Below are positions 17,103 to 19,855 of a stretch of DNA of 64,000 nt, one piece after another. The notes beneath the pieces were generated by a model. That model saw only the letters and a list, made by a program, of their open reading frames with translations, ran no database searches and was not told where the DNA came from. How positions within the stretch are numbered: position 1 is the stretch's first letter; every line of letters begins with the position of its first letter. The DNA lies in NCBI RefSeq assembly GCF_988243305.1, contig NZ_OZ547136.1; one strand, given 5' to 3'. A program made the translations under genes and the position numbers.

Positions 17103-17324
17103 ATGGCAAAGATCCGATATCTGCAGGGCACGCATGATGCCCGGGCCGGGGATATCCGTGATGTGGCACAGCCGTGTGCGGAGGTGCTGGTTCGCCTGGG
17201 AAAGGCGGAGTACATCACGGTGCGACGTCCGGCAGGTCAGAAAAAGAAACGTGATGCGGAGCATGGCGAATGTGGAACCTTTTACGGCGAACCCGAAAAA
17301 ACCAGAAATCAGGACGTGACGTAA
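17103..17324 (+). CDS. Small hypothetical protein between the capsid and portal genes
   Basis: 73-aa ORF; overlaps the portal start by 55 nt; uncertain. Confidence 0.3.
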   Translation: MAKIRYLQGTHDARAGDIRDVAQPCAEVLVRLGKAEYITVRRPAGQKKKRDAEHGECGTFYGEPEKTRNQDVT

Positions 17325-19855
17325 GAGAGGCGGGCTGGACCAGCCTGTTTCAGGCGGTGGCTGAGCCCTTTTCCGGCGCCTGGCAGCAGGGCGTGAAAGC
17401 CGATCCTGAAGCCGTCCTCTCCTTTCATGCGGTGTTTGCATGTATTTCGCTGATATCCCAGGATATCGCCAAAATGCGGCTGCGTCTTATGCAGACGGAT
17501 GCGCATGGGATACGCAGGGAAACGCGCCGGGGGGATATTGCCCGCCTCTGTCGTCGTCCCAACGCCCAGCAGAACCGCATCCAGTTTTTTGAACTGTGGC
17601 TGAACGCCAAACTGCGTCATGGCAATACGGTGGTGCTGAAAATCCGTAATGCCCGGGGGCAGATCAAAGAACTGCGTATTCTGGACTGGAGCCGGGTTGA
17701 ACCTCTGGTGGCGGATGACGGCGAGGTGTTCTACCGCATCACGCCGGACCGGAACTGCGGGATCACGGAGGCGGTGACGGTGCCTGCCCGGGAAGTGATC
17801 CACGACCGGTTTAACTGTTTTTTTCATCCGCTTATAGGATTGCCGCCGGTGTATGCCGCCGGGCTGGCGGCCACGCAGGGGCATCATATTCAGGAAAATT
17901 CGACGTCTTTTTTCAGAAATGGCGGCAGGCCGTCCGGGGTGATTGAGATCCCCGGCAGTATTACGGAAGAAAATGCGAAAAAACTGAAGAGCAACTGGGA
18001 CAGCGGGTATACAGGCGAAAATGCGGGGAAAACGGCCATTCTGAGCAACGGGGCAAAATACAACCCCACGACGTTTTCACCTGTGGATGCGCAGACGGTG
18101 GAACAACTGAAGATGACCGCTGAAATTGTCTGTTCGGTGTTCCGTGTCCCGGCCTACAAGATTGGCGTGGGACAACCGCCTTCCAGTGACAACGTGGAGG
18201 CGCTGGAGCAGCAGTATTATTCCCAGTGCCTGCAGACGCTGATTGAGTCCATTGAACTGTTACTGGATGAGGCGCTGGAAACGGGGGAAAACGAGAGTAC
18301 AGAATTTGATGTCACCACGCTGCTGAGAATGGACAGTGAGCGGCGCATGAAAACGCTGGGGGATGCGGTGAAAAATACGCTTCTCACGCCCAATGAGGCC
18401 CGTAAACGGGAGAACCTGCCGCCCCTGGCCGGCGGTGATGCACTGTATCTTCAGCAGCAGAACTACAGTCTGGAGGCGCTGTCCCGTCGTGATGCCCGTG
18501 AGGATCCGTTCGCGTCTGCCGGGAAAACAGTTTCATCACAGCTGCCTGACGGCGCATCTGACGGTAATAAGGCAATCAGTGAAACAGAGCATGATGCGGT
18601 GAAAGCGATGTTCAGGGGGGATACTGAGAAAATGACGGAACGGGAACTGTCCATTATTCGTGCACTGGGAGAAGAATTCTCCACAGTGCTGGCGGATTTA
18701 CAGCGCACATTTGAGGGGAAGATGGCCTCGCAGGCACAAGCGTTTGAAGAGAAACTGACTTCCCTGTCGGCGGTATTACAGAAGCATGTGACGGTGGATG
18801 AGGTGCGTCCGGTTCTGCAGGCGATGGTGGATGACGCTGTGGGGGCCATTCCGGTACCGCGTGATGGTCGTGATTATGATCCGGATGTACTGCAGCAGGC
18901 GGTGAATGATGCGGTCGCAAATATTCCGCAGCCGGCGGACGGTAAAAGTCTCACCCCGGATGATGTGCGTCCGATGCTTGAACAGATGGTGAAGGAGGCT
19001 GTAAGCCATATCCCTGTTCCGCGTGATGGTCGTGACTACGATCCGGAAGTACTGCAGAAGGCGGTGAATGATGCGGTCGCAAATATTCCGCAGCCGGCGG
19101 ACGGTAAAAGTCTCACCCCGGATGATGTGCGTCCGATGCTTGAACAGATGGTGAAGGAGGCTGTAAGCCATATCCCTGTTCCGCGCGACGGTCGTGACTA
19201 TGATCCCGATGTTCTGCAGAAGGCGGTGAATGATGCGGTCGCAAATATTCCGCAGCCGGCAGACGGTAAAAGTCTCACCCCGGATGATGTGCGTCCGATG
19301 CTTGAACAGATGGTGAAGGAGGCGGTAAGCCATATTCATGTTCCGCGTGATGGTCGTGACTACGATCCGGATGTTCTGCAGAAGGCGGTTCTGGATGCGG
19401 TGAGTGCCCTGCCGGCTCCGCAGGACGGGCGTGATGCCACGGCTCTGGAAATACTCCCCGCCATTGACGATCAAAAATCCTTTCCCCGGGGCACGTATGC
19501 CACACACCAGGGCGGACTCTGGCGGGCGTATGAAAAAACGCACGGGATGCGGGGATGGGAATGCCTGGTTGACGGGGTGGCGGATATTGACGTCAGCATG
19601 ACGGGTGAGCGGTTGTTCTCTGTGGTGGTCCGGCAGAGCAGTGGCCAGCGTACGGAAAAAACATTTTCCCTGCCGGTGATGCTCTACCGCGGTGTGTTCA
19701 GAGCCGGTGAAACCTACCACCCCGGCGATACGGTGACGTGGGGGGGCTCGCTGTGGCACTGCAACAGTATGACCGAAGATAAACCCGGAGAAGCTCATTC
19801 ATCAGCCTGGACCCTGGCGGCAAAACGTGGGCGGGATGCAGGAGGCGGAAAATGA
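17270..19855 (+). CDS. Portal protein (HK97 family) with long C-terminal extension containing tandem repeats
   Basis: N-terminal about 400 aa carry portal signatures (AVFACISLISQDIA, NGGRPSGVIEIPG, SNWDSGYTGENAGKTAILSNGAKY); C-terminus has 54-aa repeats and a W/G-rich terminal domain. Confidence 0.75.
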   Translation: MWNLLRRTRKNQKSGRDVREAGWTSLFQAVAEPFSGAWQQGVKADPEAVLSFHAVFACISLISQDIAKMRLRLMQTDAHGIRRETRRGDIARLCRRPNAQQNRIQFFELWLNAKLRHGNTVVLKIRNARGQIKELRILDWSRVEPLVADDGEVFYRITPDRNCGITEAVTVPAREVIHDRFNCFFHPLIGLPPVYAAGLAATQGHHIQENSTSFFRNGGRPSGVIEIPGSITEENAKKLKSNWDSGYTGENAGKTAILSNGAKYNPTTFSPVDAQTVEQLKMTAEIVCSVFRVPAYKIGVGQPPSSDNVEALEQQYYSQCLQTLIESIELLLDEALETGENESTEFDVTTLLRMDSERRMKTLGDAVKNTLLTPNEARKRENLPPLAGGDALYLQQQNYSLEALSRRDAREDPFASAGKTVSSQLPDGASDGNKAISETEHDAVKAMFRGDTEKMTERELSIIRALGEEFSTVLADLQRTFEGKMASQAQAFEEKLTSLSAVLQKHVTVDEVRPVLQAMVDDAVGAIPVPRDGRDYDPDVLQQAVNDAVANIPQPADGKSLTPDDVRPMLEQMVKEAVSHIPVPRDGRDYDPEVLQKAVNDAVANIPQPADGKSLTPDDVRPMLEQMVKEAVSHIPVPRDGRDYDPDVLQKAVNDAVANIPQPADGKSLTPDDVRPMLEQMVKEAVSHIHVPRDGRDYDPDVLQKAVLDAVSALPAPQDGRDATALEILPAIDDQKSFPRGTYATHQGGLWRAYEKTHGMRGWECLVDGVADIDVSMTGERLFSVVVRQSSGQRTEKTFSLPVMLYRGVFRAGETYHPGDTVTWGGSLWHCNSMTEDKPGEAHSSAWTLAAKRGRDAGGGK
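18795..19440 (+). repeat. Tandem direct repeats, 162-bp unit, about 4 copies, in frame within the portal gene
   Basis: Unit phase markers at 18954, 19116 and 19278 (exact 162-nt spacing); encodes repeated DDVRPMLEQMVKEAVSHIPVPRDGRDYDPDVLQKAVNDAVANIPQPADGKSLTP. Confidence 0.9.

Follow-up and report, generated by a model that had tools for sequence, protein, structure and literature searches.

Layout of the locus

The subject of this report is a single open reading frame (ORF), positions 17270–19855, in a stretch of 64,000 nucleotides of Escherichia coli DNA (contig NZ_OZ547136.1; the whole stretch is called the window). As read from the window, the ORF starts with ATG on the plus strand, runs without interruption and encodes 861 amino acids (aa). 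The window carries a lambdoid E. coli prophage with a late operon of the type found in Shiga toxin (Stx) phages. Terminase, a prohead protease, a capsid protein of the HK97 fold and a gp6-like adaptor are all encoded in the head module around the ORF. The original prediction took the ORF for an HK97-type portal protein with a long C-terminal extension. The analysis favors a different reading, with a probability of about 0.8: two normally separate genes, for a portal and for a non-essential, fibre-like protein probably present at about 12 copies, have been fused by one G. The name X is used here for aa 455–861 and their stand-alone homologs; the family itself is unnamed. The parts of the ORF are as follows.

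17270–18631, plus strand: portal moiety (aa 1–454), as long as the whole separate portal gene of two-gene alleles
18470–18631, plus strand: portal C-terminal tail (aa 401–454), in which the last conserved helix ends and a Ser/Gly/Asp-rich linker and the short amphipathic helix EHDAVKAMFRG follow
18615–18620, plus strand: run of six Gs (G6), the sixth of which sets the portal frame in register with X
18632–18635, plus strand: retained X start codon ATG (18632–18634, Met455), overlapped by the old portal stop codon TGA (18633–18635), which now lies in the +1 frame
18632–18787, plus strand: long N-terminal helix of X (aa 455–506); X residues 3–50 are helical in the AlphaFold model, with a predicted local distance difference test score (pLDDT) of about 90
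18788–19474, plus strand: repeat stalk (aa 507–735), eight half-units, each a helix with a 12-residue Pro-rich IPxPxDG linker
18857–19389, plus strand: high-identity core of the array, period 162 bp, from Tandem Repeats Finder
19475–19852, plus strand: all-beta C-terminal domain (aa 736–861) with modules resembling carbohydrate-binding modules (CBMs) of the CBM5/12 type, the clearest at aa 809–854 (19694–19831)

The portal moiety and X

Profile searches agreed with the original description of the N-terminus as an HK97-type portal. TIGR01537 (portal_HK97) covers aa 45–388 with 349.4 bits against a cut-off of 112, and PF04860 (Pfam) covers aa 54–382 with an E value of 1e-80. The nearest solved chains are portals of 424–431 aa (9lbn_H and 8cez_A, E = 1e-28 and 4e-20). 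They align to aa 43–420 and leave about 440–460 residues beyond the alignment, in keeping with the long extra region noted at the outset. The separate portals of phages 1717, PPompW_699 and BP-4795 have 454 aa, and with Salmonella FSL SP-016 included the range is 451–454 aa. By sequence and by position in the head module, aa 1–454 are assigned as an ordinary HK97-type portal. The tail, aa 401–454, lies beyond the Pfam and TIGR portal models and is found in the separate portals of Salmonella FSL SP-016 too. In some fused E. coli alleles X begins at residue 431, not 455 (P0008, P0009, P0012, P0017, P0028 and others), which corresponds to a 24-residue deletion somewhere in the portal part, so that the length of this part also varies.

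Residues 455–861 are a second gene rather than an outgrowth of the portal. They begin at the retained ATG and show homology over their whole length to stand-alone proteins whose genes directly follow the portal gene in related phages. Comparison of residues 421–861 with 1.84 billion representative proteins gave 5,558 matching clusters, 2,687 of them below 1e-10. A portal domain was present in just 2 of the 150 best matches; the other 148 stand alone, and their median length is 400 aa. The stand-alone proteins share one plan: each starts at a Met of its own and continues with a long N-terminal helix, between 0 and 19 PxPxDG modules and a conserved C-terminal domain. Residues 455–861 align end to end with P0121 (54% identity) and with a protein of Salmonella FSL SP-016 (55%), in both cases from Met455 exactly. 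The window protein has the N-terminal helix, the PxPxDG modules and the conserved C-terminal beta domain by which the family can be recognized. It differs in not being encoded by a separate gene: the position is kept, but X is fused in frame to the portal via G6. Of the predicted portal extension, then, the extra region stands, while its assignment to the portal itself does not.

In every two-gene context that was read, X directly follows the portal, with an overlap of 4–17 nucleotides (nt), and precedes the adaptor. These contexts were three metagenomic contigs, an enterobacterial prophage type from many samples, Salmonella FSL SP-016, Rhizobium RHph_X2_26 and Pseudomonas PAJU2 (portal–X–adaptor loci L002, L003, L004, L005, L010, L011, L012–14 and PAJU2). 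Conservation of the C-terminal tip of X extends from phages of Pseudomonas and Rhizobium to E. coli. The closest portal relatives outside the enterics, those of Moraxella Mcat3 (44% identity) and Ralstonia YO098_5 (41%), have no X, and there the portal gene is followed directly by the adaptor gene. X is accordingly regarded as accessory and non-essential.

The copies of NCBIfam and Pfam that were searched hold no model for the X family, and CBM_5_12 matches to the window protein are below threshold. PF28083, which is outside the scanned Pfam copy, is precomputed on near-identical fused portals and may cover part of the extension. Stand-alone X proteins of Salmonella, Enterobacter, Klebsiella, Citrobacter and E. 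coli are labeled by NCBI as 'phage gp6-like head-tail connector protein' or 'phage portal protein' (P0150, P0272–P0384). They match neither the gp6-like connector nor the portal family model, and the names seem to have been borrowed from the neighboring genes.

One extra G at the junction

The junction reads TTCAGGGGGGATACTGAGAAAATGACG in the window and TTCAGGGGGATACTGCGAAAATGACG in phage 1717. The window codons are TTC AGG GGG GAT ACT GAG AAA ATG, with six Gs where the two-gene alleles have five. The portal frame runs on into the X frame because of this single extra G at 18615–18620. The +1 frame of the window reads GGILRK*, compared with RGILRK* in 1717 and RGFLTK* in Salmonella FSL SP-016. 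In FSL SP-016, 1717, PPompW_699 and BP-4795 the portal ends in ...RG(I/F)L(R/T)K-TGA, and the stop codon overlaps the X start codon as ATGA.

The ancestral form consists of two translationally coupled genes with the portal stop overlapping the X start (AAAATGA). An extra G in the G5 run, 12 nt upstream of this overlap, fuses the frames and gives one X chain per portal subunit. The ribosome-binding signal ahead of Met455 is weak, as judged by reading the sequence, and for this reason little free X is expected from the fused allele. An A/C polymorphism lies 7 nt past the tract. It is synonymous in the two-gene frame (AGA/CGA, both Arg) and exchanges Glu for Ala in the fused frame, which fits the two-gene frame as the one historically selected.

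RefSeq annotation implies the opposite order of events, with the long ORF as the original portal and the two-gene alleles as pseudogenes that arose by a frameshift. The Prokaryotic Genome Annotation Pipeline (PGAP) marks alleles of 2585 nt as 'phage portal protein, frameshifted', and PHROG 2271 models the long form. Such a history is very unlikely. Stand-alone proteins make up 148/150 of the best family representatives, and phages of Salmonella, Pseudomonas, Rhizobium and metagenomes have two genes with ATGA-type overlaps. The A/C polymorphism is synonymous in the two-gene frame only, the old stop codon is still present, and the two-gene form is carried by the Stx phages 1717 and BP-4795, which are described in the literature as phages. 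The RefSeq label, which takes the fused form as the norm, was seen for example on the G5 alleles of E. coli EL361 (L017 301–2885) and MS20674 (L018 301–2885).

Fused and two-gene alleles

Matches to the ORF were found in 1,245 of the 5,426 complete genomes of E. coli and in 93 phage records, over a span of either 2586 nt (fused) or 2585 nt (two-gene). Exact copies of the 71-nt fused junction are present in 746 complete E. coli records, and exact copies of the two-gene junction of the 1717 type in 152. In a sample of 64 alleles, 44 were G5 (two-gene) and 20 were G6 (fused). G6 is carried by the window, phage 2851 and YYZ-2008, while phages 1717 and BP-4795 have G5 with the ATGA overlap. Phage 2851 is reportedly a working, lysogenising phage.

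The long protein is established in databases. Residues 1–859 cover positions 1–859 of the PHROG 2271 profile (859 positions) with an E value of 0, and the entry WP_000267294.1 is named phage portal protein. The original prediction had allowed for two outcomes that bear on this. One was that the portal would prove to be split from the downstream part; this is the case in related phages, at 93–96% nucleotide identity, but not in the window, where the ORF is intact. The other was that the extension would be a common, annotated feature of known function. It is common and annotated, as the profile, the entry and the 1,245 genomes show, but without a described function.

G6 was found on two junction haplotypes, ACTGAG and ACTGCG, with flanks that differ on both sides, and G5 likewise occurs with both ACTGAG and ACTGCG. 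The length of the tract has therefore changed more than once. A second, independent portal–X fusion was detected in a distant lineage, where four contigs, the longest of about 115 kb, represent two sources. The portal in this fusion is 47% identical, the junction is a different one and lacks a vestigial stop, the repeats are of the PEPEPLPDI type, and the C-terminal domain is the same. These sequences show fused and two-gene alleles side by side, with a fusion that has arisen repeatedly.

Recurrent change of tract length, with G5 and G6 each next to an A and a C variant 7 nt away, would also be expected if the tract were a switch, with slippage in replication, transcription or translation yielding portal plus X and the portal–X fusion from one phage. 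Stops follow the tract in both other frames (GGY* in −1, GGILRK* in +1), as such a switch would have it. Nevertheless, this is improbable. Five or six Gs are few for a contingency locus, no slippery heptamer of the type X_XXY_YYZ lies in frame (codons TTC AGG GGG GAT), and no downstream stimulator is obvious by eye, RNA structure not having been folded. Moreover, 14 of the 20 fused alleles have a near-identical portal (0–6 differences), which fits inheritance and not frequent switching.

Repeat array and stalk

The 162-nt in-frame array was first described as about four copies of a 54-aa unit. Tandem Repeats Finder gave 3.3 copies with 95% matches, 0% indels and a score of 968, and to these are added a decayed copy before the array (about 45% identity) and a half copy after it, which makes the first count of about four a reasonable one. 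Three good copies lie in frame and are pairwise 93.8–97.5% identical. Each 54-aa unit is composed of two half-units of 29 and 25 aa, each of them an amphipathic helix of 13–17 residues and then IPxPxDG. The stalk comprises eight half-units altogether and is strongly acidic (net charge −22); the tip is mildly basic (pI 9.0).

Among E. coli alleles X has 245, 299, 353, 405/407, 461 or 515 aa, that is, exact steps of 54 aa, in fused and two-gene forms alike. The stalk gains and loses 54-aa double units by unequal recombination. The expectation that the repeats would be prone to copy-number change and assembly collapse is borne out by these lengths and by the 16 of 80 viral contigs (IMG/VR) that terminate within the array. 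Dozens of 'partial' portal proteins in databases, on contigs of about 2 kb, stop in it as well. Short-read assemblies of E. coli prophages break systematically at the 162-bp array.

Since such repeats break short-read assemblies, and many partial proteins and contigs end in the array, the fusion or the array in the window might be taken for a sequencing or assembly artefact. That can practically be dismissed: the identical 2586-nt sequence is present in many complete genomes from independent laboratories, and the copy number of the window is the commonest class among the alleles. On the minus strand, an antisense ORF of 340 aa (18776–19798) crosses the array. It is explained most simply as a by-product of repetitive, stop-free sequence.

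Predicted structure of X

The AlphaFold model of whole X has a confident N-terminal helix of 48 residues, eight short helices with 12-residue linkers and then the beta domain; how the short helices are placed relative to one another is predicted with low confidence. An oligomeric or flexible fibre, predicted as a monomer, would look like this. The C-terminal domain, modeled from an alignment of 82 sequences, is all beta with a pLDDT of 94.2. Its small beta fold can be superimposed on chitin-binding domains, consistent with the carbohydrate-binding-like end that had been proposed from the sequence. Foldseek was in weak agreement with a resemblance to CBMs and tail fibres (tail fibre of phage 7-7-1, E = 1e-3). 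The domain profile matched chitin-binding parts in the PDB at about 1e-3 and Anabaena All3316 at 4e-5. Pfam PF02839 (CBM_5_12) gave E values of 0.012 or 0.0049 on the window protein, below threshold; in the X family, 26 of 45 members had E ≤ 0.1 and six had E ≤ 0.001, the best being 8e-5. The nearest proteins in a library of viral structures (BFVD) are collagen-repeat, CBM5/12 and ChiC_BD proteins of uncultured phages. The tip is thus modeled as a CBM5/12-like fold with putative glycan binding.

In the X family, 40 of 150 relatives end in at least four G-X-Y triplets, with a Pfam Collagen match of 2e-9 in one, and these collagen-like triplets suggest trimers. The tail-fibre-type motif GFxGTxxEW is present in 4/150 members. 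The window protein itself has no collagen-like run and ends in KRGRDAGGGK.

Where X may sit

The modules of X would be an N-terminal helix of about 50 residues, a stalk of 27-aa modules, each a short helix plus IPxPxDG (eight here), and a beta domain of CBM5/12-like modules. We infer that X is a non-essential fibre of the portal vertex in about 12 copies, probably as four trimers. The copy number is thought probable because the gene is coupled on both sides to genes for 12-mer ring proteins.

X is placed tentatively inside the capsid, on the crown side of the portal, at somewhat less than even odds. To our knowledge, the C-termini of all solved portals are luminal. This, together with repeated fusions that keep X intact and a fused allele in phage 2851, reportedly a functional phage, is the reason for leaning toward the lumen. 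The N-terminal helix of X would dock near the flexible C-terminal tail of the portal, a link that the fusion makes covalent. The acidic stalk and the mildly basic beta tip would then project along the capsid axis, like a segmented, detachable portal barrel or core. X is full length in all complete fused alleles sampled, and the ratio of non-synonymous to synonymous substitution rates (dN/dS) in X is 0.1–0.37 for all allele pairs except one.

Several points weigh against the luminal placement or the steps that lead to it. Over-sampling of lineages such as O157:H7 inflates the number of fused alleles. The X parts of fused alleles owe their diversity largely to recombination with two-gene alleles; because these parts are recombinant, dN/dS among fused alleles is no proof of selection on X after fusion. 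No relative of X was found by sequence in the PDB. The tip resembles carbohydrate-binding modules and parts of phage tail fibres, and G-X-Y tails (40/150) and GFxGTxxEW (4/150) occur in the family; elsewhere, features of the CBM, collagen and tail-fibre kind are known from the outer surface of virions. In Ralstonia, the portal comes with a long acidic tail but without X. The step from tail to docking site is consequently weak, as tail length fails to separate modules with X from those without.

The portal tail was downgraded as an X-specific docking element on account of the similar long acidic tail in Ralstonia. A role of X as a head-length ruler, suggested by the elongated heads of some long-tailed Stx2c and Stx1 phages, was rejected, since X varies from 245 to 515 aa among phages while packaging from cos sites, used by at least one of them (Lys8385Vzw), should need a fixed head size. 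Packaging of Lys8385Vzw from cos sites is described in the paper on that phage. The long-tailed Stx2c phage phiSTEC799-Stx2c is reported to have an elongated head, likened to that of the Stx1 phage H19J (PMC12029490).

The features of the outer virion surface favor X as an external whisker or collar fibre of the neck, seated on the adaptor or the portal clip, whose CBM-like tip binds surface glycans. In function it would resemble T4 fibritin or the collar-whisker proteins of lactococcal phages. The adaptor gene follows that of X directly and is coupled to it, X is dispensable and missing from close relatives, and sugar-modifying enzymes are encoded within the same neck modules. In such a phage the G6 fusion would trap X inside the head, a tolerated loss or reduction of an accessory function (a hypomorph). 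This location, the main rival to a luminal one, is possible though on balance doubtful. Two independent in-frame fusions to a portal C-terminus, with X at full length in the fused alleles, speak against it, as does a G6 that arose or spread on at least two haplotypes. The weak ribosome-binding signal at Met455 would leave little free X from the fused allele. A tip conserved from Pseudomonas and Rhizobium to E. coli is unusual for a host-specific adhesin, and there is no homology to fibritin (hhalign probability 0.04).

Neck modules with X often hold enzymes of sugar or other modification between X and the tail genes. They were located at PAJU2 gp10–gp12 (L099 7583–9526), L010 5294–8186, L011 4472–11456 and L003 9165–9740. 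They include an annotated alpha-2,3-sialyltransferase, MptE-like proteins, methyltransferases, a hexapeptide transferase, a radical SAM/SPASM protein and a BNR protein. Together these genes could form a cassette for glycosylation of the virion.

The fibre- and CBM-like nature of X and the recurrent, viable portal fusions would be reconciled if the portal tail left the capsid through the interface of portal and shell. X, docked or fused, would then form external carbohydrate-binding whiskers around the neck. Such an exit is improbable; if true, it would be the first case of a portal whose C-terminus is shown to be exposed on the outer side of the head.

X might also be luminal and act away from the portal, either as an ejected pilot that binds peptidoglycan glycan strands or as a portal-bound assembly factor removed by the prohead protease. 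Its gene position after the portal mirrors that of SPP1 gp7 and internal proteins of the MuF type, as is generally known. Chitin-binding modules recognize polymers of beta-1,4-linked N-acetylglucosamine, which are related to the peptidoglycan backbone and could by extension suit a pilot. The protease is luminal and fused to the capsid protein, and it could cut the Ser/Gly/Asp linker. We nevertheless consider either role rather unlikely. X gave no MuF or other Pfam match, covalently fused X would have to be cleaved before ejection, and a folded beta domain of 126 residues, probably trimeric, is ill suited to passage through the tail tube. The preferred placement is still that of an X held at the luminal side of the portal.

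Neighboring genes

The late operon runs in the order small and large terminase, protease–scaffold–capsid fusion, a small ORF, the fused portal ORF, adaptor, head-closure protein, gp10-like protein, tail terminator and lambda-like tail genes. Two neighbors of the fused ORF were annotated further.

15121–17058, plus strand: fusion of prohead protease, scaffold and major capsid protein, 645 aa (PHROG 617, TIGR01554, TIGR01543)
19852–20178, plus strand: head–tail adaptor gene (gp6-like), its ATG overlapping the stop codon of the fused ORF (ATGA), with GGAGG 6 nt upstream

The capsid fusion gene precedes the portal gene instead of following it. Neither the capsid fusion protein nor the adaptor has a relative of solved structure by sequence in the PDB, and the head module is one without a solved virion. 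Tail-fibre genes are separate from the fused ORF and lie further downstream in the window. Two phage tRNA genes (anticodons CAT and TCT) are found at 5100–5352, followed by a gene for a SASA/NanS-like esterase at 6845–8713. This layout of tRNA and esterase genes is that of a Stx-phage late region; in strain R13, the annotation of the identical prophage region has no toxin gene there.

Novelty and meaning

A literature search found nothing relevant on the function of the long protein or on virion proteomics of it. The papers on Lys8385Vzw, on seven Stx phages and on the VIRFAM neck classification mention just 'portal proteins'. Neither literature nor databases yielded a description of the fusion, the X family or a role for X. 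The annotation of the long protein as a portal is already known; what is new is the recurrent one-G fusion to a widespread, portal-adjacent, fibre-like protein with a variable stalk and a chitin-binding-like tip.

The X family, with thousands of sequence clusters, is encoded next to the portal in many prophages of Proteobacteria. In phages of the Stx type that are otherwise near-identical, a single G separates fused from two-gene alleles, which offers a ready-made experiment on the location and function of X. A luminal X would mean that siphophages of this group have an axial structure anchored at the portal, such as has been described mainly in podophages. An external X would be a new neck fibre with a glycan-binding tip on the medically important Stx phages. 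The labeling of the two-gene form as a pseudogene in RefSeq and the breakage of assemblies at the array affect prophage typing in E. coli O157 and other Shiga toxin-producing E. coli.

Comparison with known systems

The P22 portal barrel is also extra helical mass on a portal C-terminus, expected to project from the crown into the capsid along the portal axis. In P22, however, one continuous helix per subunit is contiguous with the crown, whereas a flexible linker of about 40 residues comes first here. X further differs in having nine helices parted by Pro-rich linkers and a beta tip, and in being a separate gene product without covalent attachment in most relatives; it is not counted as a barrel of the P22 type.

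SPP1 gp7 and Mu gpF (MuF) are likewise encoded immediately 3' of the portal gene, are portal-associated in few copies and have variable C-terminal parts. No Phage_Mu_F match (Pfam) was obtained for the window protein or for 45 family members, and X is fibrous with a CBM-like tip and no evident DNA-binding or MuF fold. Gene position is all that the two have in common.

T4 fibritin (Wac) likewise combines an anchor at its N-terminus with an alpha-helical stalk, segmented by short loops, and a small beta domain at its C-terminus, and is encoded beside neck-protein genes. The IPxPxDG linker of X superficially recalls IPEAPRDG of the T4 foldon. Homology of X to fibritin was rejected (hhalign probability 0.04, E = 0.92), and fibritin, unlike X, is not known to be fused to the portal and has an established external position.

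The CBM5/12 modules of Serratia ChiB, Streptomyces ChiC, Erwinia EGZ and Vibrio chitin deacetylase differ from the X domain, for which the Pfam match in the window is below threshold and which lies within a larger beta unit of 126 aa. Phage tail fibres with collagen-like parts or CBMs (Agrobacterium phage 7-7-1, Pseudomonas Pa193 gp47 and BFVD proteins of uncultured phages) have similar tip modules, and some X homologs share the collagen-like tails. X, in contrast, is encoded in the head and neck block beside the portal and not in the tail-fibre block.

In T4, portal fusions of gp20 to GFP reportedly carry a folded domain on the portal C-terminus inside a viable head. Those fusions are artificial, whereas the portal–X fusion is natural, recurrent and widespread.

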